Below the pieces are notes generated by a model that made no database searches, was not told the origin of the DNA, and was given only the letters and a program-made list of their open reading frames with translations. The position numbers and the translations under genes are program-made. Positions 5,003 through 60,076 of a stretch of 64,000 nt of DNA are shown here, in pieces. How positions within the stretch are numbered: position 1 is the stretch's first letter; each line of letters begins with the position of its first letter. Origin of the DNA: a virus; the IMG/VR virus record IMGVR_UViG_3300023296_001674, one strand, 5' to 3'.

Positions 5003-6511
5003 ATGCAAATACCAGAAATCACACTTTCAACGCAGCAAGTTAATATTCTTGATTGGGTTAAATCAGGAAAAGGTAATGTCATTATCGAAGCTGTAGCTGG
5101 CAGTGGTAAGACCTTCACATTGGTTGAAGCCGTTAAGTTGATGGTAGGCACTGTATTCCTTGGTGCTTATAACTCTGCTATGGGTTATGAGTTGAAGGAA
5201 AAAACCAAGGGCATGAAAAATGTTCGGGCTGGCACGTTCCATAGTGCAGGCTTTGGCGCACTTCAATATCGTTACGGAAAAATGCAAGTTGATGCTAACA
5301 AAGTGCGAGATATCGTTAATGGTATGGCGGAGGGCGACGACTTGTTTGCTGTATACGGCAACTTCATTAACAAGATGGTAGCACTTGCCAAGGATTCCGG
5401 CATTGGGTTCTTTAATAAAATTAACGACCCTATCATGTGGAATGAACTTGTTGATAAGCACGACCTTATGGATCAACTCGACGAACACTTAACAGTTGAT
5501 GTTGGTATTCAGTTATCAATGGACGTCTTAAAGGCATCTAACTCTAATCTTAAAGTTATTGATTTTAGTGATATGATTTATCTTGTATTGTTAAACAACC
5601 TCCGCCTTTTCCAACAAGATTGGGTTTTGGTTGACGAAGCCCAAGATACCAATAGCACGCGACGCGCACTGGCAAAGAAAATGTTAAAACCCGGTGGGCG
5701 TTTGATCGCGGTTGGTGATCCTCGCCAAGCAATCTTTGGCTTCACTGGTGCTGATTCCGATGCGCTGGACTTGATCTCCAAGGACTTCGGTACAACGACG
5801 CTTCCTTTGACTAGCACGTTCCGTTGCCCTAAATCGGTTGTTAAACACGCCCAACAATGGGTATCACACATTGAAGCGTATGATACTAATATCGAAGGCG
5901 AAGTTATCAACGCTAAATTCGACGACGTGTTCGGTGAAAAATCCGAATATAAGTTTACCGGTTCCGATGCAATCATTTGCCGCCTTAACGCGCCTATCGT
6001 TGAACTTGCATTCAAGTTGATTCGTAAGGGTGTTCCTTGCCGCATTGAAGGTAGAGATATCGGCACACAACTTGCAGCACTTGCAAACAAGTGGAAAGTA
6101 GTCCGCCTTGACGCCTTACGCAATCGCCTTGAGAAGTATAAGGAACGTGAAGTATCTAAGGCTATGGCAAAAGGGCAAGAACAGAAAGCCGGTAGCATTA
6201 CTGACCGCGTGGGCTGCCTTAATGTTCTTATCGAACGCGCCGAAGAAAAGAAACTTGACGTTGCTGGTTTGATTGTAATGATCAAGGGCATGTTTTCAGA
6301 CGCCCAAGATAAAACCACAAATAAGAACATTTTGGTTTTATCATCCGTTCATAAATCAAAAGGTAAAGAATGGCCTAGAGTGTTCTTGTTAGGACGCCAA
6401 GAAAATATGCCAAGTCCTTTTGCTAGACAGACATGGCAACTTTTACAAGAGGATAACCTTATCTACGTTGCTGTAACGAGGGCGATGGAAACGTTAATCG
6501 AAGTGGATTAA
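5003..6511 (+). CDS. UvrD/Rep-type superfamily 1 DNA helicase
   Basis: Walker A AVAGSGKT, VLVDEAQD, VGDPRQAIFGFTGA, SVHKSKGKEW, IYVAVTRA. Promoter TTGACT 4949-4954 / TATACA. Confidence 0.9.
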   Translation: MQIPEITLSTQQVNILDWVKSGKGNVIIEAVAGSGKTFTLVEAVKLMVGTVFLGAYNSAMGYELKEKTKGMKNVRAGTFHSAGFGALQYRYGKMQVDANKVRDIVNGMAEGDDLFAVYGNFINKMVALAKDSGIGFFNKINDPIMWNELVDKHDLMDQLDEHLTVDVGIQLSMDVLKASNSNLKVIDFSDMIYLVLLNNLRLFQQDWVLVDEAQDTNSTRRALAKKMLKPGGRLIAVGDPRQAIFGFTGADSDALDLISKDFGTTTLPLTSTFRCPKSVVKHAQQWVSHIEAYDTNIEGEVINAKFDDVFGEKSEYKFTGSDAIICRLNAPIVELAFKLIRKGVPCRIEGRDIGTQLAALANKWKVVRLDALRNRLEKYKEREVSKAMAKGQEQKAGSITDRVGCLNVLIERAEEKKLDVAGLIVMIKGMFSDAQDKTTNKNILVLSSVHKSKGKEWPRVFLLGRQENMPSPFARQTWQLLQEDNLIYVAVTRAMETLIEVD

Positions 6512-12616: not shown

Positions 12617-13462
12617 ATGAAACTCATAGCGATTAATGCAGATATCACCACGTTGGAAGTTGATTGTATCGTAAATGCATCTAATCCAGCACTAATGCAT
12701 GGCGGTGGGGTATGCGGTGCAATATTTGAAGCCAGTGGCGCAAATGAACTTGCGGGATTTATTGCGCAGAACTATGGGCTAGGATGCTTAACAGGGCAAG
12801 TAGTTGTGACTCCGGGGTTCAACCTACCGGCGAAGTTCATCTTGCACACTGTCGGGCCTGATATGCGCCTATATGCACAAGAAGCGGGTGATACATTGTT
12901 GCAGTTATGTTATATCAACTGTATTGAGGCGGCATTCGATGAAGGGTTGACTTCTATTGCCTTCCCTGCTATCAGTACTGGAATCTTTGGATTTGATAAA
13001 AAACGTGCTGCTACGATTGCAGTTACTACATTGATGGACTACAGTGGTAGCGAAGATATCGAAATTACCTTTGCTTGCTTTGGCGATGAAGATACCGCAA
13101 TAGTTCAAGCCGCGATTGATGATGAAGATGCATCACGGCATTATCTATCATGGTCAATGTATAATGAACAATACGATATTGATTCGGCGGCTGGAAAGTG
13201 TGACATTGAAGGCGATTGGGAAGTGTTATACGCTGACTTATCTACGGATGTTCCTACTGGCATTTACATGGTATCAACAACCTATGATGGCAACCTCGGT
13301 GTAGCGAAAGGCGTTGTTATCAATGATGGTGTATTCGATATCGACCAAACCCTACGCGCTTGTGCGGTTGCCCGTAACAATGCAGGATATTGGGGAACTT
13401 TTCTTGAAGGATTGGATTGGAATAGCGAAACCGAAGAATTTACAGCACACTTCGGTTCTTAA
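12617..13462 (+). CDS. Macrodomain protein (ADP-ribose binding/hydrolase fold) with ~115-aa C-terminal extension
   Basis: ADITTLEVDCIVNASNPALMHGGGVCGAIFEASG and AFPAISTGIFGF are macro motifs. Promoter TTGACA 12559-12564. Confidence 0.85.
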   Translation: MKLIAINADITTLEVDCIVNASNPALMHGGGVCGAIFEASGANELAGFIAQNYGLGCLTGQVVVTPGFNLPAKFILHTVGPDMRLYAQEAGDTLLQLCYINCIEAAFDEGLTSIAFPAISTGIFGFDKKRAATIAVTTLMDYSGSEDIEITFACFGDEDTAIVQAAIDDEDASRHYLSWSMYNEQYDIDSAAGKCDIEGDWEVLYADLSTDVPTGIYMVSTTYDGNLGVAKGVVINDGVFDIDQTLRACAVARNNAGYWGTFLEGLDWNSETEEFTAHFGS

Positions 13463-13808: not shown

Positions 13809-14096
13809 ATGGAACTAAACGACCTCCCATCGGTTGCAGCAATGCACCAACACAAGAACCCCGATCAGAAACGGAATGAACGTCGTATGCAGGAATTTAT
13901 AACTGACGATATGATACACCCCGACGAGCCAGCACCACAACATAGGTCGCCTTCGTTGTTGAATGACACCGCCTCGACAGTTGTGTTCGAGGCTGGCATT
14001 GATACACCGCAAATGAGCCGCGATTGTATCATTGCTATATATGAAAAAATATTGGGTGGCAATCCAGAAACTGAACTTAAAAATCTTTTTGCTTGA
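13809..14096 (+). CDS. Hypothetical protein (possibly leaderless mRNA)
   Basis: Track ORF trimmed to ATG 13809. TTGACT-16-TTAAAT ends 6 nt before the ATG and there is no RBS. Confidence 0.55.
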   Translation: MELNDLPSVAAMHQHKNPDQKRNERRMQEFITDDMIHPDEPAPQHRSPSLLNDTASTVVFEAGIDTPQMSRDCIIAIYEKILGGNPETELKNLFA

Positions 14097-14147
14097 CATT
14101 GGTTCAGTTAGTTGCTATAAAGTAGGTAACTTAACCCGAAAGGAAAC

Positions 14148-16278: not shown

Positions 16279-16335
16279 TGCTTGACAGTGGTTCAGTTAG
16301 TTGCTATAACAAGGCAACAGATAAAGGACAATCAA

Positions 16336-22885: not shown

Positions 22886-22951
22886 CCCTTGACACTGGTT
22901 CAGTTAATCGCTATAACTTAATCAACGAAACACCAACAGAAAGACAATCAA

Positions 22952-31557: not shown

Positions 31558-31672
31558 ATTTATATAATACCACAACAACCAAACATGTCAACAAAAAAGA
31601 TTCAATAATAACACTTGACTCCGTTTGGGTTGGGTGTATACTATCCATAGATTGAAACAAAGGATTAATCAA

Positions 31673-32593
31673 ATGGCAAAAGCAACCCGCACCAAAATCG
31701 ATCATGAGCAACAAATCACTAACGCTATTGTCGCCCACGTTGAAGGGTATATCGCCGCCGAGGCTACAGGCGAAGAGATCGCACGTTGGGAAAGCCCCTT
31801 CGGAAAATTCTTCCGTGAAGGCCATTTTTGCGCCGCAACCGATAACCAGTATAAAGGCTGGACTAACAATTTTTTCCTTACACTTATGGCGCACGCAAGC
31901 GGATTCAATTCCGATGCATGGGGAACATTCAAGCAATGGAAAAGCATGGGAACGGATGAAACACCCGTATCTGTTAAGCATGGTCAAAAAGGTTCCGCTT
32001 GGATTGCTTTTCCATATATCAACAAAGATAAAGTAACCGGCGACGACACCGTAACCGGATTCGGATATCGCGCCGTATTCAATGCCGATCAAATCGAAGG
32101 ATATACGCCCGAGGTTGTTGAACTACCAGAGTCGCAGGTTGTGCAACATGCCAAAGCTGAAACATTCTTGAAAAATCTGGACGTAACATTCCAGCATATC
32201 GGAAACCGCGCTTTCTATAGCCCTGCTAGTGATGCAATCAGCATGCCCCCAGAAGGCGCGTTTAAGGCGACTGAATACAGTACCGCAACCGAAGGCTACT
32301 ATGGCACCAAGTTTCATGAATACGCCCACGCAACCCTGCACGCTAGCCGGTGCAATCGCGAACAAGGCGCGGATAAAGCTTCATACGCTTTCGAAGAGTT
32401 GGTCGCCGAATTGACCTCGACTATCCTATGTTCGCGCTTTGGTATATCCGCACAACCACGCGAAGACCACGCTAAGTATATACATTCATGGTTGAAAGCA
32501 CTGAAAAGCGACAAGACCATGATTATGAAGGCAATGAAGAAAGCAAGCCAAGCAATCGCTTGGATGGATAAAAAGCAACCAACATCAAAATAA
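31673..32593 (+). CDS. ardC: ArdC-like protein: N-terminal ssDNA-binding (DUF1738-like) domain plus C-terminal zincin metalloprotease
   Basis: Trimmed to ATG 31673. YKGWTNNFFL...WGTFKQW, HEYAHATLH (HExxH), YAFEELVAELTSTILCSRFGI, AKYIHSWLKALKSD. Promoter TTGACT 31615-31620 / TATACT 31637-31642. Confidence 0.8.
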   Translation: MAKATRTKIDHEQQITNAIVAHVEGYIAAEATGEEIARWESPFGKFFREGHFCAATDNQYKGWTNNFFLTLMAHASGFNSDAWGTFKQWKSMGTDETPVSVKHGQKGSAWIAFPYINKDKVTGDDTVTGFGYRAVFNADQIEGYTPEVVELPESQVVQHAKAETFLKNLDVTFQHIGNRAFYSPASDAISMPPEGAFKATEYSTATEGYYGTKFHEYAHATLHASRCNREQGADKASYAFEELVAELTSTILCSRFGISAQPREDHAKYIHSWLKALKSDKTMIMKAMKKASQAIAWMDKKQPTSK

Positions 32594-39152: not shown

Positions 39153-39536
39153 ATGAAAAAATTATTATTAGCGGCAACACTTATGGTATTGCCATTTACT
39201 GCGATGGCAGAAGAACAAACAGTTGGAATGTCTGCTACATTTATGTGTAGAGTGGCATCAACAGTAGACGCGCATTTAACTAGATTGGGTTATACCAAAG
39301 GTGTTGAACTTGATGGATTAAATATGGGAACCATTATTATATGGTACGGAACAGAAAACGGCATCAAATCTTGGATGCTTACTGCGAATACACCCAATGG
39401 TTTAACTTGCAAATTAGATAATGGTTATGTTGATCTCAAAAACCCAACCGAAACTACTCCTGAATCGTCAAAACCAAAACTGGATGAAGAATCATTAAAG
39501 AAAATGATGGACAACGCGAAAAAAGACTCACTTTAA
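39153..39536 (+). CDS. Secreted protein (signal peptide)
   Basis: MKKLLLAATLMVLPFTAMA signal sequence. Confidence 0.75.
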   Translation: MKKLLLAATLMVLPFTAMAEEQTVGMSATFMCRVASTVDAHLTRLGYTKGVELDGLNMGTIIIWYGTENGIKSWMLTANTPNGLTCKLDNGYVDLKNPTETTPESSKPKLDEESLKKMMDNAKKDSL

Positions 39537-40207
39537 CATTTGATTATATAAATATAATTTGGAAAATTGACCGACTTCAATCTCCTTCTTACAGTTTCTT
39601 CGCCGAGTTTTAATATTTTTGCCGACTCGATGACTGATGAATATATAACGTCGTCTATTTTAACAGATTTTTTGCGATGATTATTTTCTGGATGTTTTCC
39701 ATATAACGGATGTTTATCACCGATTTTTCCATACATGCCATTTTTTTCACCAGAATTTTTTTCACTTATTTTTTGTTTAGTTTCATCTGTTCTTGGCACA
39801 CCGAATAATGGATTATTTTTTCCAGTTCTGCCCCACATTGGATTATTTTTTCCTTTCATTTTCTCTGCAAATTTAGGTCTTTTAACACCTGTTCTGTTGG
39901 GTGGTCTTCTATCAACGCAAATATTAGTAAGTATGCCATTTTTGTCATAACCATTTCGACCAAGTTTTTTAATCCACGTTTTTTCTAAATCATATGCATC
40001 CTTTTCTGGCATATTTTTTTCTATGAATTTAACACCAGGTTCTAATCCTTCTTTTCGTATCGCATTTATTTTATTCCATTTTTGTATATTTTCTGTTGTG
40101 TGTATAGTTTCCGTCAGATGTCTCTTCCATCGGTCTTTTGATCCTTTTCCTATATAAAATTCTATATTATCATGTCTTGGGTCTAGCAATGCGTATACGT
40201 AATACAT
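39533..40207 (-). CDS. GIY-YIG homing endonuclease with NUMOD3-like repeats
   Basis: YYVYALLDP...FYIGKGSKDRW (GIY-YIG). Repeated GKNNPMWGRTGKNNPLFG, GEKNGMYG, DKHPLYGK. Confidence 0.85.
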   Translation of the reverse strand: MYYVYALLDPRHDNIEFYIGKGSKDRWKRHLTETIHTTENIQKWNKINAIRKEGLEPGVKFIEKNMPEKDAYDLEKTWIKKLGRNGYDKNGILTNICVDRRPPNRTGVKRPKFAEKMKGKNNPMWGRTGKNNPLFGVPRTDETKQKISEKNSGEKNGMYGKIGDKHPLYGKHPENNHRKKSVKIDDVIYSSVIESAKILKLGEETVRRRLKSVNFPNYIYIIKC

Positions 40208-44858: not shown

Positions 44859-45330
44859 AATGAATGATATACAATTGAGTGGAAATTTTAAATTATCAGA
44901 GTTGGTTAAGTCAGATACGGCGGAAAGGTTAGATATTGATAACTGGCCCACAGACAATGATACTATTGAAGCGTTAAGGGTGACAGCAAACAGAATATTG
45001 CAGCCCGTCAGAATGAATTACGGTATTTCTTTTTCGCCTACTAGCGGGTTTCGTTGCTTAACCTTGAATAGAGCATTAAAATCGAAAGATACATCTGATC
45101 ATGTTTTAGGTAGAGCAGTAGATTTTGAAGTACCAGGAATACCAAATAAAGATTTGGCTGTGTGGATACGAGATAACCTATCTTTTGATCAGGTTATATT
45201 AGAATTTTGGGATGGGATAAATCCAAACTCTGGGTGGGTGCATTGTTCTTTTAGATCAGAAACTGAAAATAGAAATCAGTGTTTAACTATTAATAAAAAT
45301 GGCGTATTTAATGGATTTAGAGCAAATTAA
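44851..45330 (+). CDS. Peptidase M15-family cell-wall endopeptidase (probable endolysin)
   Basis: FKLSELVKSDTA...SGFRCLTLNRALKSKDTSDHVLGRAVDFEV (SxHxxGxAxD zinc site). Confidence 0.8.
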   Translation: MNKMNDIQLSGNFKLSELVKSDTAERLDIDNWPTDNDTIEALRVTANRILQPVRMNYGISFSPTSGFRCLTLNRALKSKDTSDHVLGRAVDFEVPGIPNKDLAVWIRDNLSFDQVILEFWDGINPNSGWVHCSFRSETENRNQCLTINKNGVFNGFRAN

Positions 45331-46024
45331 ACAAGAAATTTATTATTTATATGAAATTGAAAATATTATCAATGGAAAGAAATATATCGGATATACTAAT
45401 AATCCAAGACTTCGCCAAAAAGCACATTTTGTTTGGAAAAATAGTGGGTCTATATTGGTTGAACATGCTATTAAAAAATATGGATTAGATTCATTGCGGT
45501 TTAAAATACTTGTTAAATCAGACAATGAAGTATATATTAAAGATTTAGAAATTGCAGCCATTAGCTCTCTTAATACCAAAGCACCACAAGGGTATAATTT
45601 AACTGATGGCGGCGAAGGAACTCGTGGTTTGACATTATCTGATAATCAAAAAGCAGATAGAAGTAAAAACATGAAAGGTAAAATGATTGGTGAGAAAAAT
45701 CCCTTTTATGGAAAGAAACATGATCCAGAAACTCTAAAAAGAATGGTAGAAACTAGAAGAAAAAATGGATCATATGTTGCGTGGAATAAAGGCGGCGGAC
45801 ATAAATTAAGTGCTAAAAGTCGCAAAAGTCTCCGTGAAAACAGACCTGTTGGCGGGACAAAAAATCCAAACGCCAAGTTGACGGAAGAAAAAGTACGAGA
45901 AATATATAATCTAAAAGGACAAATGACTGGTGAAAAGGTCGTCATGTTCTTAGGTTTGAATGTATCTGGTGAGACCGTTAGACGTATATGGAATAGAACT
46001 ACATGGTCGAGTTTAGTATATTAA
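45299..46024 (+). CDS. GIY-YIG homing endonuclease with NUMOD3-like repeat
   Basis: IYYLYEIENIINGKKYIGYTNNPRLRQKAH (GIY-YIG), GEKNPFYGKKH. Overlaps the endolysin 3' end by 32 nt. Confidence 0.85.
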   Translation: MAYLMDLEQIKQEIYYLYEIENIINGKKYIGYTNNPRLRQKAHFVWKNSGSILVEHAIKKYGLDSLRFKILVKSDNEVYIKDLEIAAISSLNTKAPQGYNLTDGGEGTRGLTLSDNQKADRSKNMKGKMIGEKNPFYGKKHDPETLKRMVETRRKNGSYVAWNKGGGHKLSAKSRKSLRENRPVGGTKNPNAKLTEEKVREIYNLKGQMTGEKVVMFLGLNVSGETVRRIWNRTTWSSLVY

Positions 46025-46489: not shown

Positions 46490-46518
46490 TTGACAGTGGC
46501 GGATTGTTTTGTTATAAT
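46490..46518 (+). promoter_or_regulatory. Consensus sigma70 promoter for the methyltransferase operon
   Basis: TTGACA 46490-46495, 17 nt, TATAAT 46513-46518. Confidence 0.7.
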
Positions 46519-46551
46519 TCATAATATAAAACAAGTAAAAAGAGTTCATAT

Positions 46552-47391
46552 ATGAAATCACCATTACGATATCCGGGTGGCAAAACGCGTGCAACCAAAA
46601 CATTATACTCGTTAATACAATACCATATACAACAAAATAATATAACTGATATATGTTCGCCATTTTTGGGTGGAGGATCATTTGAATTATTTTTATGTAC
46701 AACTGGCATTAATGTTACCGGATATGACATTTTTGATCCGTTGGTAGATTTTTGGCAGTGCATGTTAACTGATCCAGATAAATTAGTTGCGGTTATAGAA
46801 ACTTATAAAAAATCATATGACAGTGGAATACCAACAGCAAAAGAACAATTTTATATATTACAAAAAACACAACACGAATATTCCGACGTATGGCACAGGG
46901 CGGCAATATTTTTCACATTGAATAGATCGTCTTTTTCTGGATCGACGATGTCTGGTGGATGGTCGCCCGATTATCCACGTTTTAATGATTCTTCTATCGA
47001 AAGAGTTAAATCATTTAACGAACCATTGCTGCAAGTTAATAAATTATCGTTTGATCAATCTATAACAAAACATAAAAACAGTTTTCTATATCTCGATCCG
47101 CCATACATGATTGAACACAATCTTTATGGAAAAAAAGGAAACACCCATAAAGATTTTGATCATTTAGGATTATATGACATATTAACAACTAGAGATAATT
47201 GGATTATGTCATACAACGATGATGCTGATATTCGAAATTTATATCAGAATTATAAAATAGAAACGGTAAATTGGGCATATGGCATGACTTCTAATCGCAA
47301 ATCAAATGAAATCGTTATATTCAGTGATGATATAATATCCGACCCTTACTCTATAGATGCTATATCAAAAGGCGCGAATATAATTTGGTAG
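46552..47391 (+). CDS. dam: DNA N6-adenine methyltransferase, Dam/D12 class
   Basis: RYPGGK, SPFLGGGS (FxGxG), LNRSSFSG, DPPY (LYLDPPYM). Confidence 0.85.
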   Translation: MKSPLRYPGGKTRATKTLYSLIQYHIQQNNITDICSPFLGGGSFELFLCTTGINVTGYDIFDPLVDFWQCMLTDPDKLVAVIETYKKSYDSGIPTAKEQFYILQKTQHEYSDVWHRAAIFFTLNRSSFSGSTMSGGWSPDYPRFNDSSIERVKSFNEPLLQVNKLSFDQSITKHKNSFLYLDPPYMIEHNLYGKKGNTHKDFDHLGLYDILTTRDNWIMSYNDDADIRNLYQNYKIETVNWAYGMTSNRKSNEIVIFSDDIISDPYSIDAISKGANIIW

Positions 47392-47401
47392 AAATAATGC
47401 A

Positions 47402-48535
47402 ATGTCAAGTTTGAAATATAGGAAAATACGAAAACATATGCTTGAAAATGTTATTAATTGGGGCAATTTTAAATATGTCCCAACGAAAAAAATAAAGAAA
47501 AAAACGAATATCGTTGACCGCGATGCATATAAAAATGCGTTCGGGATAGATTTAGTTTTATCCAATAATAAATCTAACAAATCCGGCGACGTTCTAGAAT
47601 GCGCAACTGCTATTGTCTTATCCAAAAAATTACATGGATCGACTATATATAAAAACAACAGAAAATCTGATAGGGTACATAATGCATTTAATGAATTATC
47701 AGAAATTGAACAATTAAAATGGTTGACGTTAGTAGAAAAAAGCGTAGATGAAATTATAGCAGCAGAAAAATTAGACGAATACACTGATATAATAATATAC
47801 TTTTGCGATCAATCACTCGAAGATGATCAACGTGATATTGTAGTAAAGTCTAATAATGATGACATTTGTGGTATATCTTGCAAGAGAAACAACACCTCTA
47901 ATAAATCTATATCGTGGTATGCCCTGACGACATTTGATAATTTTATAGTTAAGTATACCAATGGATCGATAATCGCCGATGTCATAGATCAAAATATTAT
48001 TGCGGGTTTTTACCACAGGGGTATAAAATTTATTAATCACACCACCAATATCATCGATAATATCAGAAGATGGCCTTCAACAAAAAAAGGTTATTTGCAA
48101 ACACCGCGTGAAAAAGTTATATTAAGAAATAGAATAAACATGTTACAATTAATGACTGATTATATACATAAAATGTTTGTTAGATATATAGAAATGTCAT
48201 CAAATGAAGAATATGATATACGATTATTATATAACATATTGAATGGCATAGGAAAATATGATTATTATAAAGTATCGACGACTAACGATAAACCTAACGA
48301 CGTCGAATCCATCAATACTCATAACACATTGAATAATTATACAGCAATTAAAACCCCCCTTATAATACCAAAATCATTAAATATTACGATGGGTTATGAT
48401 AAACAAAATCGTGTTATAATTATATATGATTTTGGTGGTACCAATATAATGCACATGAGATTACACACCAAGTCTGGTCGTATGTTAAATTCACATATGG
48501 GCATAGAATGCGTGAACGAAACTGCTAAAAAATGA
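47402..48535 (+). CDS. Candidate type II restriction endonuclease partnered with the Dam-class methyltransferase (function unproven)
   Basis: Starts 10 nt after the methyltransferase stop. Very AT-rich. ...EDDQRDIVVKSNNDDICGISCKRNN... could be a PD-(D/E)xK-type block (by eye). Confidence 0.6.
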   Translation: MSSLKYRKIRKHMLENVINWGNFKYVPTKKIKKKTNIVDRDAYKNAFGIDLVLSNNKSNKSGDVLECATAIVLSKKLHGSTIYKNNRKSDRVHNAFNELSEIEQLKWLTLVEKSVDEIIAAEKLDEYTDIIIYFCDQSLEDDQRDIVVKSNNDDICGISCKRNNTSNKSISWYALTTFDNFIVKYTNGSIIADVIDQNIIAGFYHRGIKFINHTTNIIDNIRRWPSTKKGYLQTPREKVILRNRINMLQLMTDYIHKMFVRYIEMSSNEEYDIRLLYNILNGIGKYDYYKVSTTNDKPNDVESINTHNTLNNYTAIKTPLIIPKSLNITMGYDKQNRVIIIYDFGGTNIMHMRLHTKSGRMLNSHMGIECVNETAKK

Positions 48536-54902: not shown

Positions 54903-55565
54903 ATGAGTTTTAATAATAGACCAGATAGACCTATAGAATCATCCATTTACCTACGATTGGTAACTGAAGGCGAAATGAGAAAAAACACAATAAAATCATT
55001 TTACTCTACTGTTAAAGAAAACGCACCGGAAAATGTATTAAGTCATTACGATGTTCAAGACCCTGATGGAAATCCTGCTACAACGTTGTTATTACATCGC
55101 GTTAATGAAGACAATAAGCATGAATACGAAATACCATTGGTTAGAAACCTTACACCAGATGAAATATACGAAGTAGCATTAAATCTTAACACTAAATTAA
55201 ATGAAGGTGATTTTTTATTAGAATCGAGTTCATTTGACGATGATTGCTGCCTTACGGAAGATGATGATCCATCTGAATATATGGAAGCAGACGTTTTTGA
55301 ACGATTTGCAGAGAAATTATCTGAGCGCATGCATAATGTATGGTATAAAGAACGCGAAGATGCTGGCTGGAGATTTGGTACACAGCGCCTCGAAGAAGAA
55401 AAAACACACCCATTAATGAAACCATGGAATCAATTAACCGAAGAAGATAAACAAATAGACTATTCATTGCCTGAATTTTTTATTGATTTGTTAGAAGAAT
55501 TTGGGTATGCAGTTGTAAGTCATGATGAATTAGATGGATTTTCAGAAGAAATATCTAAAAAATAA
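54903..55565 (+). CDS. RyR (ryanodine-receptor-type) domain protein
   Basis: FAEKLSERMHNVWYKEREDAGWRFGTQRLEEEKTHPLMKPWNQLTEEDKQIDYS matches the RyR domain pattern. Confidence 0.7.
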   Translation: MSFNNRPDRPIESSIYLRLVTEGEMRKNTIKSFYSTVKENAPENVLSHYDVQDPDGNPATTLLLHRVNEDNKHEYEIPLVRNLTPDEIYEVALNLNTKLNEGDFLLESSSFDDDCCLTEDDDPSEYMEADVFERFAEKLSERMHNVWYKEREDAGWRFGTQRLEEEKTHPLMKPWNQLTEEDKQIDYSLPEFFIDLLEEFGYAVVSHDELDGFSEEISKK

Positions 55566-56661: not shown

Positions 56662-57513
56662 ATGTATAACACAAGAATAGCGCCATCACCAACGGGTGAT
56701 ATGCACCTTGGTACTGCTAGAACCGCTTATCATAATTTTTTGATGGCAAGGGCGTCCGGTGGAAAATTTATATTGCGCATCGACGATACTGATGCTGCAC
56801 GCAGTAAACAGTCGCACGTCGACGTCATCCTTGAAACTATGGATTGGTTGGGTTTAGACTACGACGAAATCGTTTATCAAAGTGATAGAAATGATCGTTA
56901 TATGGAAGTAATCAAACAGATGGATGCAGATGATCTTGTTTGCGAGTTAGACAATGGTGCATTTGGCACATTCATCGAAAGGGTTCCTGATGAATGGACA
57001 GATGAAATTGCTGGTGATATTATAGTGTCAGAGACCGATAGTGATATTAGTTCTAGTCTTATATTAATGAAAAGTGATGGAACTCCTACTTATCATTTTG
57101 CATCAGTAATAGATGATATGGATTTCAATATTAATTATATTATCAGAGGACACGATCATATATCTAATACACCAAAGCAACTCAATATTATGAACAACCT
57201 TGGTATGGTCATACCTAAGTTCGCACACGTGGGTCTTATTCACAAAGACGGTAAGAAATTATCTAAACGTGACGGCGCAGCAAGTATGTTGCACTATCGC
57301 GATCAAGGATATGACCCTGATGCAATGCTCAATTTTTTATTGAATCTTGGGTGGGCACCAACAAATCAAGGCAAGCAACATAAAATAATAGATCGTGATT
57401 TTGCTCTAGAGATTTTTATCAATGGTGGAAAATTGCGCAATCAATCAGCAAATATGGATTTAGCATTACTAGATTCATACAATAAAAAGTATAAGTATAT
57501 CAAGAGGAAATAA
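56662..57513 (+). CDS. Truncated glutamyl-tRNA-synthetase-like enzyme (catalytic core only; GluQRS-type architecture)
   Basis: RIAPSPTGDMHLGTARTA (HIGH-type), FILRIDDTD, DGTPTYHFASVIDD, IIRGHDHISNTPKQ, KLSKR (KMSKS-type). 283 aa, so no anticodon-binding domain. Confidence 0.85.
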   Translation: MYNTRIAPSPTGDMHLGTARTAYHNFLMARASGGKFILRIDDTDAARSKQSHVDVILETMDWLGLDYDEIVYQSDRNDRYMEVIKQMDADDLVCELDNGAFGTFIERVPDEWTDEIAGDIIVSETDSDISSSLILMKSDGTPTYHFASVIDDMDFNINYIIRGHDHISNTPKQLNIMNNLGMVIPKFAHVGLIHKDGKKLSKRDGAASMLHYRDQGYDPDAMLNFLLNLGWAPTNQGKQHKIIDRDFALEIFINGGKLRNQSANMDLALLDSYNKKYKYIKRK

Positions 57514-58426: not shown

Positions 58427-60076
58427 ATGACAAAATATTACATGGGTGTATCCGCTTATCATCACGATAGTGCTGCCGCGCTAATAGATGAACACGGAAA
58501 CATTATTTGCGTTAGCCAAGAAGAACGTAGAACACTTATAAAGAATGACAAATCGTGGCCTGAAGAAAGTATTAATTTTTGTTTACGTCATGCAAAATCG
58601 CAACAGTTAGATACATCCGATATCACTTATGGATTTTATGAAAAACCATGGATTAAATTTACACGTAGATTTTGTCAAAATCCTAAAGACACCGTTCGAT
58701 ATTTCAAAGAAGCATATAATACTACGAAAAAAATAAAAGGTTATAAAACCATAATGCATCACGATGCTCATGCATTGGCTGGATGTGCAACATCGCCATT
58801 TGATAATTGTGTATATTTAATAGTTGATGCAGTGGGTGAATGGGAGACGACAACTTGGGGAACATTTAATAAAATCGATGGTATAAAAAAAGAAGGGTCT
58901 ATTAGATATCCGCACAGTATAGGATTAATGTATTCATCATTTACGAGATGGTTGGGATTAAAACCAAACGAAGATGAATATATTGTAATGGGTGCGGCGG
59001 CTTTCGGTAAACCACGATTTGCTAATAAAATAAGAAAAGATTTTTTATCAGAAGTAACAGCATCGCCACATGGAATAGAATTTAAAAAAGGAGTTCATAA
59101 CGGTATAGAGCAATACTACGGCGACGAAGTTCCCGTAAAAGATTGGTATGATTGGTGTGCGAGCATCCAGTATGTATGCGAACAAATGATGATAGATTTG
59201 GTTAGAATGTTAGAGCAACAATACGGCAAAGGTCATAATTTGGTATTAGGCGGCGGTGTAGCACTTAATTGTGTGGCAAATTCTAAAATAATGAAATCAA
59301 CGCATGTGAAAGAATTATGGATATTACCAAGCCCCGGTGATAGTGGAAACGCGCTAGGGGCTGCTGCGCACGCCGCTGGCATCAATGATTTAGTTTGGGA
59401 TAGTCCTTACCTTGGAATGGACATGGATAACGACAGTAACCCAACACAGGAACTAATACGCAACGTTGTAGCAAGATTGGATAATGGTGAAATTATAGGT
59501 TGGATACAAGGCAAAGAAGAATTTGGTCCGCGCTCTTTGGGTCATCGTTCATTGCTTGCCGATCCAAGATCATCGAAAATTAAAAATAAAATAAATTTAA
59601 TAAAAAATCGACAAACATTTAGACCTTTCGCACCGTCTGTGTTAGAAGAAGAAACATATATGTATTTTGACTTACCAAATGGCACAACAAGTAGATACAT
59701 GCAATTTACAGCAAGAGTAAAAAATCCAAATATGTTACCTGCAATATGTCATATTGATGGAACCACCAGAGTTCAAACCGTACCTAAATCAACCGATCCA
59801 TTTAGACGATTGCTTGAGCATTGGAAAGAAACCACTGGTTGTGCAGCATTGTTGAACACCAGTCTTAATATCAAAGGTCAACCATTAATGAGTAATCGAA
59901 AAGATGCTATTCAAATGTTATTAGATACACCAATGGATGCATTGGTTATAGGCAATAGATTGTACTATAAAATAACAAAAGATGGATTAAGCGATGAACC
60001 CGGCGAAACGGTTCAAATAGCAGAATGTATAGATTACAGCCAAGGCGTTGATGACATGATTAAAGGTCGTTTCTAA
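58427..60076 (+). CDS. NodU/CmcH-family carbamoyltransferase
   Basis: YMGVSAYHHDSAAALIDEHGNIICVSQEERRT (Kae1-like N-terminal domain), LGGGVALNCVAN, EFGPRSLGHRSLLADPR, RPFAPSVLEE, DGTTRVQTV. Confidence 0.85.
   Translation: MTKYYMGVSAYHHDSAAALIDEHGNIICVSQEERRTLIKNDKSWPEESINFCLRHAKSQQLDTSDITYGFYEKPWIKFTRRFCQNPKDTVRYFKEAYNTTKKIKGYKTIMHHDAHALAGCATSPFDNCVYLIVDAVGEWETTTWGTFNKIDGIKKEGSIRYPHSIGLMYSSFTRWLGLKPNEDEYIVMGAAAFGKPRFANKIRKDFLSEVTASPHGIEFKKGVHNGIEQYYGDEVPVKDWYDWCASIQYVCEQMMIDLVRMLEQQYGKGHNLVLGGGVALNCVANSKIMKSTHVKELWILPSPGDSGNALGAAAHAAGINDLVWDSPYLGMDMDNDSNPTQELIRNVVARLDNGEIIGWIQGKEEFGPRSLGHRSLLADPRSSKIKNKINLIKNRQTFRPFAPSVLEEETYMYFDLPNGTTSRYMQFTARVKNPNMLPAICHIDGTTRVQTVPKSTDPFRRLLEHWKETTGCAALLNTSLNIKGQPLMSNRKDAIQMLLDTPMDALVIGNRLYYKITKDGLSDEPGETVQIAECIDYSQGVDDMIKGRF

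Follow-up and report, generated by a model that had tools for sequence, protein, structure and literature searches.

Positions 46490-48535 of the viral record IMGVR_UViG_3300023296_001674 (a stretch of 64,000 nucleotides, here called the window) hold a compact two-gene cassette, in which a gene for a D12-fold DNA methylase is followed, ten nucleotides further on, by an open reading frame (ORF) of 377 codons, ORF377, whose product profile comparisons identify as an extremely divergent homologue of the HaeIII-family restriction endonucleases. With somewhat better than even confidence, we read the cassette as a CbeI-type Type IIP restriction-modification (R-M) operon of GGCC specificity in the genome of a giant phage measuring about 570 kb. 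Both halves of the pair point to this target, since HaeIII and CbeI of the endonuclease family cut GGCC, and M.CbeI, DmtB and M.Ssp6803II of the methylase branch modify it. The type of system is already known; what is new here is a very divergent, phage-borne member. An earlier note on this DNA had proposed ORF377 as a possible restriction partner of the methylase, a proposal that gains substance from the homology to the HaeIII family and from the linkage of this family to methylase genes.

ORF377 and the HaeIII endonuclease family

The earlier note could name no family for ORF377 (47402-48535, + strand), and in the standard libraries it indeed has none: Pfam (with E-values up to 1), PHROGs and NCBIfam yielded zero matches. 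A tblastn search of 50,697 phage records and a search of IMG/VR likewise returned no match, and phmmer against the sequences of the PDB gave only chance matches to HIT proteins (E > 1). A word-indexed protein search retrieved ORF377 itself and, when started from a three-sequence alignment, only two further proteins, P0124 and P0125. A HMMER scan of 1.84 billion cluster representatives produced three weak matches. One of these, the FG-GAP repeat protein P0122 (E 1e-6), was discarded as a repeat-inflated match to 'IYDFNGTN'; another, P0123 (175 aa), aligns to the C-terminal 150 residues of ORF377 and is a phage remnant described below. The third, P0124 (424 aa), is recognised by the Pfam model RE_HaeIII at 2.6e-58 and aligns to ORF377 from the block flagged in the earlier note through to the C-terminus (pairwise E 2e-8); P0125 is also a match of RE_HaeIII.

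We then compared ORF377 with family profiles built from annotated HaeIII-family endonucleases of plasmids, genomes and viral contigs, from which ORF377 was left out. A profile of nine sequences (seven annotated members plus P0124 and P0125) matched with 48 bits (E 1e-13) and took in ORF377 residues 56-364, which align to positions 3-285 of the 305 in the profile; among 2000 composition-matched shuffles of ORF377, the highest score was 10.7 bits. A second profile, independent of the first and free of P0124 and P0125, was made from 23 endonucleases of genomes, plasmids and viral contigs; it gave 38.6 bits (E 8e-11) versus 8.4 bits for the best shuffle, and the profile matches together cover residues 55-364. 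By hhalign, ORF377 aligned to a 13-sequence family alignment over 273 columns with 97.1% probability (E 5.5e-11). Within the family, both ORF377 and P0124 fit the profile of the canonical HaeIII-type enzymes, which are linked to C5 methylases (34.4 bits), better than that of the subgroup from Nostocales. Thus, while the curated models stay silent on 47402-48535, the deeper family profiles, at 38.6-48 bits, assign it to the HaeIII family.

The motifs of the family occur in ORF377 in the family order. GDVLEC (residues 62-67; 47585-47602, +) aligns with the N-terminal G-x-x-x-E-[YF] and supplies Glu66. It is followed by the block EDDQRDIVVKSNNDDICGISCKRNN (residues 140-164; 47819-47893, +), in which Asp142 and Asp145 (DxRD) and Ser159, Lys161 and Asn163 (GxSxKxN) align with the family-invariant D-V-R-D ... 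S-x-K-x-N. Further downstream, IGKYDYYKV (residues 283-291; 48248-48274, +) carries Gly284, Tyr289 and Lys290 of the GxxDYYK motif, in full [VI]G-x-x-D-[FY]-Y-K-[VI], which is specific enough to pull 22 family loci from genome contigs; a conserved proline, Pro323, and MRLHTKSG (residues 352-359; 48455-48478, +), whose Arg353 and His355 correspond to the RxH of the family motif R-[IL]-H-x-A-S, complete the series. The block at residues 140-164 is the one that the earlier note had suspected of being a catalytic core; it coincides with the most conserved motif of the HaeIII family, and we consider it the putative catalytic core of ORF377. Compared to the family, ORF377 is extended at its N-terminus by about 55 residues. 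An alternative start at Met13 (47438) would yield the protein of 365 aa found in public gene calls.

The HaeIII family was placed under 'unknown superfamily' in the 2008 classification by Orlowski and Bujnicki (PMC2441816), and searches of the PDB with P0124 and with the family profile found no solved relative, matches to ephrins at E 0.12 being noise. AlphaFold2 models of ORF377 were unusable, with a predicted local distance difference test score (pLDDT) of 31.5 from the single sequence and 37.3 from the three-sequence alignment. A PD-(D/E)xK fold is a plausible guess from the E...D...SxK pattern, which is compatible with this fold but no proof of it.

The earlier note had also described ORF377 as markedly AT-rich, which is true of its bulk composition: its GC content of 29.9% is the lowest among the 63 long ORFs of the + strand (mean 39.7%, s.d. 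4.9). Its third-position GC (27.2%), however, is merely the 18th lowest of the 63, indicating that the bias stems mainly from an N/K/I-rich protein and not from foreign codon usage. Low GC as a sign of recent transfer of ORF377 was therefore rejected. An open frame of 377 codons in DNA of 30% GC is unlikely to persist without selection.

A D12-fold methylase related to M.CbeI

The methylase gene (46552-47391, +; 279 aa) matches Pfam PF02086 (MethyltransfD12) at 3e-23 and the PADLOC model MTase_II PDLC03247 at 6e-42, the latter being the top model also for the methylases beside HaeIII-family endonucleases. The three motifs reported in the earlier note are all present, namely RYPGGK (residues 6-11; 46567-46584, +), the FxGxG motif for S-adenosylmethionine binding, which reads FLGGGS (residues 38-43; 46663-46680, +), and the catalytic DPPY (residues 182-185; 47095-47106, +). 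The same note had called the enzyme 'Dam-class', which is right for the fold but probably not for the chemistry. The NCBIfam model TIGR00571 ('dam') scores 75.6 bits, under its cut-off of 114.85, and NF008152 scores 25.3 bits against a cut-off of 441; other D12 methylases linked to restriction endonucleases likewise fall under the Dam cut-offs of NCBIfam. The best solved relative is 7M6B (4e-25), which is M.CbeI of Caldicellulosiruptor bescii (PMC8616854), with T4 Dam at 3e-4 and Escherichia coli Dam, to which the identity is about 21%, undetected. On these grounds, we rejected Dam/GATC as the leading interpretation of the methylase, which is probably a GGCC-specific, M.CbeI-like N4-cytosine methylase.

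Two sequence signatures agree with this assignment. RYPGGK is common to M.CbeI and all D12-fold methylases linked to restriction endonucleases, while E. coli Dam reads LKWAGGK at this position. The segment that aligns to the DNA-recognition loop of E. coli Dam reads NRSSFSGSTMSGGWSPDYPRF in the window methylase and is of the M.CbeI type, not of the Dam type. From Dam-DNA structures, this loop is known to take part in GATC recognition. LNRSSFSG (46918-46941, +), the start of the loop LNRSSFSGSTMSGGWSPDYPRF, aligns with LNRITFSGTVDSGGYSQQSFENRF of M.CbeI and differs from the segment found in E. coli Dam.

Annotated as a D12 N6-adenine methylase and equipped with FxGxG and DPPY, M.CbeI was found by Chung et al. 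to produce N4-methylcytosine (m4C) in GGCC; its gene adjoins that of CbeI, which cuts GG/CC as a HaeIII isoschizomer (PMC3425538). DPPY is thus no proof of adenine specificity. Another pfam02086 protein, M.Ssp6803II, makes GGm4CC, and DmtB has been described as functionally and structurally similar to it (PMC6105098).

In a neighbour-joining tree computed from our own alignment, E. coli Dam is a distant outgroup and the remaining enzymes fall into two clades. One unites M.CbeI, the methylase of Microcystis phage Mic1 and methylases of Nostocales plasmids; its sister clade contains the window methylase, the partner methylase of P0124 (47-49% identical to that of the window), a Spirochaetia methylase (52%) and solitary methylases of Chitinophagaceae (51-57%). 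RYPGGK and the loop LNRxxFSG..SGG are common to both clades and missing from Dam, and three methylases of the sister clade adjoin HaeIII-family genes. With about 60% identity to M.CbeI, the Mic1 protein (MN013189.1; 2492-3301 of our locus L045), which is labelled 'DNA adenine methylase', is probably a misannotated GGCC N4-cytosine methylase. In the huge phage LR756502, tblastn found a methylase 35.5% identical to that of the window, without a HaeIII-like neighbour.

Linkage of HaeIII-family endonucleases to methylases of two folds

To see how regularly the family occurs with methylases, we scanned every locus with our own endonuclease, D12 and C5 profiles, which gave 40 HaeIII-family loci outside this phage lineage. 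A scan of genome contigs with P0124 alone had confirmed no relative; a rerun based on motifs succeeded. The earlier note had stated that the restriction reading would be refuted if homologues of ORF377 were never linked to methyltransferases; this is clearly not the case, as a methylase gene adjoins the endonuclease gene in 38 of the 40 loci. In 17 of them it is of the C5 type (Firmicutes, Bacteroides, Helicobacter, Planctomycetota and two viral contigs) and in 21 of the D12 fold (18 loci from Nostocales, a metagenome pair present in two copies, L006 and L007, and one locus from Spirochaetia). The remaining two loci are a gene fragment from a Rickettsia endosymbiont (L034), with no methylase beside it, and a locus truncated by a contig end (L008). 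The two viral contigs, both from IMG/VR (L041, L042), carry canonical pairs of a C5 methylase and a HaeIII-family endonuclease.

The D12-linked loci include relatives of both window genes. The gene for P0124, the closest full-length relative of ORF377, overlaps tail-to-tail with that of a D12-fold methylase 47% identical to the window methylase, and the Spirochaetia methylase, 52% identical to it, also adjoins a HaeIII-family gene. Given that ORF377 and P0124 fit the C5-linked profile better, these pairings suggest that systems with a common specificity have swapped methylases of two different folds. The closest relatives of the window methylase, those of Chitinophagaceae, are solitary, and no endonuclease remnants were found beside them.

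Two groups of loci deserve separate mention. At positions 3001-3887 of L028, from a Spirochaetia metagenome-assembled genome (OZ245332.1), the HaeIII-family gene, which lies beside a D12-fold methylase gene, is split into two frames, and the endonuclease may be frameshifted or inactivated. On Nostocales plasmids and contigs (L015-L018, L030-L033, L035, L037-L040), the gene for a 286-aa HaeIII-family endonuclease overlaps by 8 nt with that of a 280-aa D12-fold methylase about 53% identical to M.CbeI, a conserved operon with the look of a CbeI-type system that mobilisable plasmids have spread.

Promoter and probable operon structure

Upstream of the methylase gene lies a sigma-70-type promoter (46490-46518, +), composed of TTGACA (46490-46495), a 17-nt spacer and TATAAT (46513-46518). 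As the earlier note had recognised, it is perfect: all 12 consensus positions are matched, and the spacer ends in TGT, an extended -10 element (TGn). The distance from the promoter to the methylase start codon is 33 nt. Perfect matches to TTGACA-17-TATAAT occur twice in the window against 0.05 expected; when up to one mismatch is allowed, the count rises to 21 (1.37 expected), with 20 sites on the + strand, which carries most long ORFs of the window. This excess and strand bias indicate that the cassette promoter is part of a real phage promoter family, and we predict it to be active. The family, TTGACA-N17-TATAA[TC], spans window positions 3124-46518, with further members for example at 14093-14121, 16282-16310 and 22889-22917. 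Several of its sites share a nearly identical spacer (TGGTTCAGTTAGTTGC), which suggests a class of early or middle promoters specific to the phage. These promoters look E. coli-like, yet the nearest methylases come from Chitinophagaceae. Bacteroidota promoters deviate from the TTGACA/TATAAT consensus.

Between the methylase stop codon and the start of ORF377 lie the 10 nt (47392-47401, +) noted earlier, which contain no promoter or terminator. An operon order of methylase, then endonuclease, and co-transcription of the two genes are therefore likely. The cassette contains a single GGCC site (48072-48075), one of 14 in the window; if the endonuclease cuts GGCC, this site would need protective methylation.

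A deleted version of the cassette in a sister phage

Contigs L009 (247,777 bp) and L010 are syntenic with the window and belong to a sister phage, whose flanking proteins are 51-81% identical to those of the window. At the position of the cassette (5490-6493 of L009; also in L010 and L011), it encodes a 156-aa N-terminal methylase fragment, 71% identical to the window methylase and without DPPY, followed by the 175-aa P0123. The latter is an endonuclease remnant with an open frame, 31% identical to ORF377, in which the DYYK, P, RxH and S motifs are kept. The stretch is about 1.0 kb shorter than in the window, which fits one deletion that joined methylase codon ~149 to endonuclease codon ~205. 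The deleted version shows the cassette to be dispensable and older than the split of the two phages. A single deletion of this kind would end both activities together and thus be a safe route for losing an R-M system.

Avoidance of GGCC and other palindromes

No other 4-base palindrome in the window is as depleted as GGCC, which occurs 14 times against 95.8 expected, and the sister phage has 3 against 30 expected. The ratio of observed to expected counts in the window is 0.15 for GGCC, 0.32 for AGCT, 0.39 for GTAC and 0.63 for GATC, and 18 six-base palindromes are missing altogether, including GGATCC, CTGCAG and CGATCG. This depletion of short palindromes looks like a signature of restriction avoidance. 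The scarcity of GGCC and the clade of the partner methylase lend indirect support to a cleavage of GG/CC by ORF377. A further gene of the window (31625-32593, +) codes for an ArdC-like anti-restriction factor of 322 aa, in which an ArdC N-terminal domain is combined with a PolyVal zincin metallopeptidase domain; it is a second anti-restriction device. The wide depletion of palindromes and the ArdC-like protein together argue for strong restriction pressure on the phage. A freshwater Chitinophagaceae genome bin encodes a GGCC m4C methylase resembling M.FnuDI and a GGCC endonuclease resembling BhaII (PMC6329791).

Discussion

If the cassette works as we propose, host RNA polymerase would transcribe it from the sigma-70-type promoter, yielding the methylase and then, 10 nt on, the endonuclease. 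The D12-fold methylase, as a member of the M.CbeI/DmtB/M.Ssp6803II branch, would N4-methylate GGCC on phage DNA, and ORF377 would cut unmethylated GGCC. The methylase would shield the few GGCC sites of the phage from its own endonuclease and from GGCC enzymes of the host, so that packaged, methylated genomes would be immune to both, while the endonuclease would attack unmodified DNA in the infected cell, whether this is the chromosome of the host or belongs to rival phages and plasmids. With a complete R-M operon under an early-type promoter, the phage would have protection from GGCC restriction and at the same time a weapon against unmodified DNA, which would bear on how giant phages compete and obtain nucleotides.

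Several observations weigh against this interpretation. On the endonuclease side, the curated RE_HaeIII model (PF09556) is not matched by ORF377, whose sole match in PADLOC is weak and to the unrelated PDC-M24B (E 0.0014), and its identity to any family member is only 22-30%. Of the 29 family columns that are invariant or nearly so, ORF377 keeps just 12; the 17 lost include the KFD motif, R126, W280, Y178 and P180 (Streptococcus agalactiae numbering), and some 20-30 residues are inserted after the S-x-K motif, which together mean that activity or specificity may have changed. The methylase is just 28-30% identical to M.CbeI and its relatives from Nostocales, and the neighbour-joining tree places it in the sister clade (28-34% identity to these enzymes), of which no member has a measured specificity. 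The sister phage dispenses with the cassette, its deletion having removed the C-terminal half of the methylase and the N-terminal, catalytic half of the endonuclease. Finally, if the phage methylates GGCC, a 7-fold depletion of this site is not needed for self-protection and must therefore have another cause.

These points feed into alternative explanations, of which the one we take most seriously, while still doubting it, is that only the methylase is functional, as a solitary anti-restriction enzyme against GGCC enzymes of the host, and that ORF377 has decayed or been repurposed, for example into a DNA-binding protein or a non-specific nuclease. The loss of 17 of the 29 near-invariant positions, invisibility to curated models and the fast evolution of the endonuclease (31% identity to the sister remnant, as opposed to 71% for the methylase and 51-81% for the flanking genes) would be expected from decay, as would the deletion of the catalytic half in the sister phage. 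There is precedent for the solitary state in the closest methylase relatives, those of Chitinophagaceae, with no endonuclease remnant nearby, and in M.Ssp6803II, a solitary GGCC m4C methylase (PMC6105098). Decay, however, would hardly spare exactly the putative active-site positions (E66, D142, D145, S159, K161 and N163) along with DYYK and RxH, nor the tight arrangement of methylase and endonuclease across 10 nt, and the 377-codon frame is open in AT-rich DNA and identical on five contigs. DmtB is a further solitary GGCC m4C methylase. The same signs of change, namely the 17 altered positions, the internal insertion and an evolution much faster than that of the methylase, could also mean that the endonuclease of this phage lineage was turned into an offensive nuclease of altered or relaxed specificity, which, under the cover of the phage's own m4C, shreds host or rival DNA for nucleotides or exclusion. 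We think this rather improbable; if it were true, the open 175-aa C-terminal remnant of the sister phage would be a separately useful domain and not debris.

The assignment to GGCC could also be at fault. A genuine R-M pair of other specificity, possibly for an adenine-containing site with true N6-adenine methylation, would be in keeping with the DPPY motif and D12 fold of the methylase, with the identity of only 28-34% between its clade (L006, L028 and Chitinophagaceae) and characterised GGCC m4C enzymes, with a divergence of ORF377 sufficient for specificity drift, and with the mild depletion of GATC (0.63 of expectation). We nevertheless judge it unlikely, as the endonuclease family (HaeIII, CbeI) and the D12 methylase branch (M.CbeI, DmtB, M.Ssp6803II) independently point to GGCC, and as the better fit of ORF377 and P0124 to the C5-linked profile (34.4 bits) suits a methylase swap within one specificity; in addition, homologues of a GGCC m4C methylase and a GGCC endonuclease occur together in the Chitinophagaceae bin (PMC6329791). 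That ORF377 is unrelated to the methylase, a structural or accessory phage protein whose similarity to restriction enzymes is a compositional artefact, could be argued from its position between a virion-structural match and a tail-fibre-like protein, from its N/K/I-rich composition and from the spurious 1e-6 match to the repeat protein P0122. This we find scarcely credible, and the profile and hhalign results already contradict it: the profile scores of 38.6-48 bits are bias-corrected and far above the at most 10.7 bits of 2000 composition-matched shuffles, the alignment covers nearly the whole family domain with its motifs in the correct order, and the pairing of D12-fold methylases with HaeIII-family endonucleases recurs in unrelated genomes.

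Among the closest known systems is CbeI/M.CbeI of C. bescii, which, like the proposed GGCC operon, is of Type II and consists of two adjacent genes, one for a D12-fold methylase with FxGxG and DPPY and one for a HaeIII-like endonuclease. The phage cassette differs in its methylase, which belongs to the sister clade and has only about 28% identity to M.CbeI, in that ORF377 is nearer to canonical C5-linked HaeIII-type enzymes than to the Nostocales endonucleases paired with M.CbeI-like methylases, and in being carried by a giant phage instead of a bacterial chromosome. With the classical HaeIII-type systems (PF09556 plus C5), it shares an endonuclease gene directly beside a methylase gene, and ORF377 aligns over nearly the whole domain, keeping GxxxE, DxRD, SxKxN, DYYK and RxH; unlike them, it has a D12-fold partner in place of a C5 enzyme, and its endonuclease misses the Pfam model and 17 of 29 near-invariant positions, and has the ~55-residue N-terminal extension and the internal insertion. 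DmtB of Anabaena and M.Ssp6803II of Synechocystis (sll0729) have the same fold and motif set and were also misannotated as adenine methylases (PMC6105098). They are solitary, like the Chitinophagaceae relatives of the window methylase, whereas the latter, with about 30% identity to this cyanobacterial branch, has an endonuclease homologue 10 nt downstream.

Viruses with R-M systems of their own include chloroviruses, with systems such as CviAII, and phage P1 with EcoP1I. Chloroviruses use their R-M enzymes to shred DNA for nucleotides or exclusion. Jumbo phages have also been reported to carry R-M systems (Iyer et al. 2021, PMC7824862). In all these cases, the virus brings along a protective methylase and an endonuclease able to attack unmodified DNA, as we propose it here, albeit from other enzyme families; a HaeIII-family or CbeI-type pair in a phage of ~570 kb was not found in the literature.

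For the annotation of phage genomes, the case suggests that a 'Dam-class adenine methylase' with DPPY beside a gene without a family is most likely a GGCC cytosine-N4 system, and that similar phage 'DNA adenine methylase' labels, such as that of Mic1, may be wrong likewise. Restriction enzymes can drift past all curated models and yet keep their core motifs, for which reason phage-borne R-M systems are probably under-counted.

Carrier phage and gene neighbourhood

The carrier of the cassette is a giant phage with contigs of up to ~570 kb: the identical ORF377 protein occurs on five contigs, four of them of 0.2-1 Mb, the longest measuring 570,750 bp. In a megablast search with the region, none of the 50,697 deposited phage genomes turned out to be closely related, and the window contains no tRNA genes. 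The cassette sits between a gene for a 138-aa protein matching a 'virion structural protein' of PHROGs and one for a tail-fibre-like protein of 788 aa, and its neighbours further include genes for an M15 endolysin and a GIY-YIG/NUMOD3 homing endonuclease. Elsewhere in the window are genes for a UvrD-type helicase (5003-6511), a Macro-domain protein (12617-13462), a RyR-domain protein (54903-55565), a relative of class I aminoacyl-tRNA synthetases (tRNA-synt_1c, 56662-57513) and a carbamoyltransferase (58427-60076). GIY-YIG/NUMOD3 homing-endonuclease genes are found twice, at 39533-40207 (-) and at 45299-46024 (+); the latter lies just upstream of the cassette, a place where the sister phage (L009) has no such gene, as would fit a mobile insertion.

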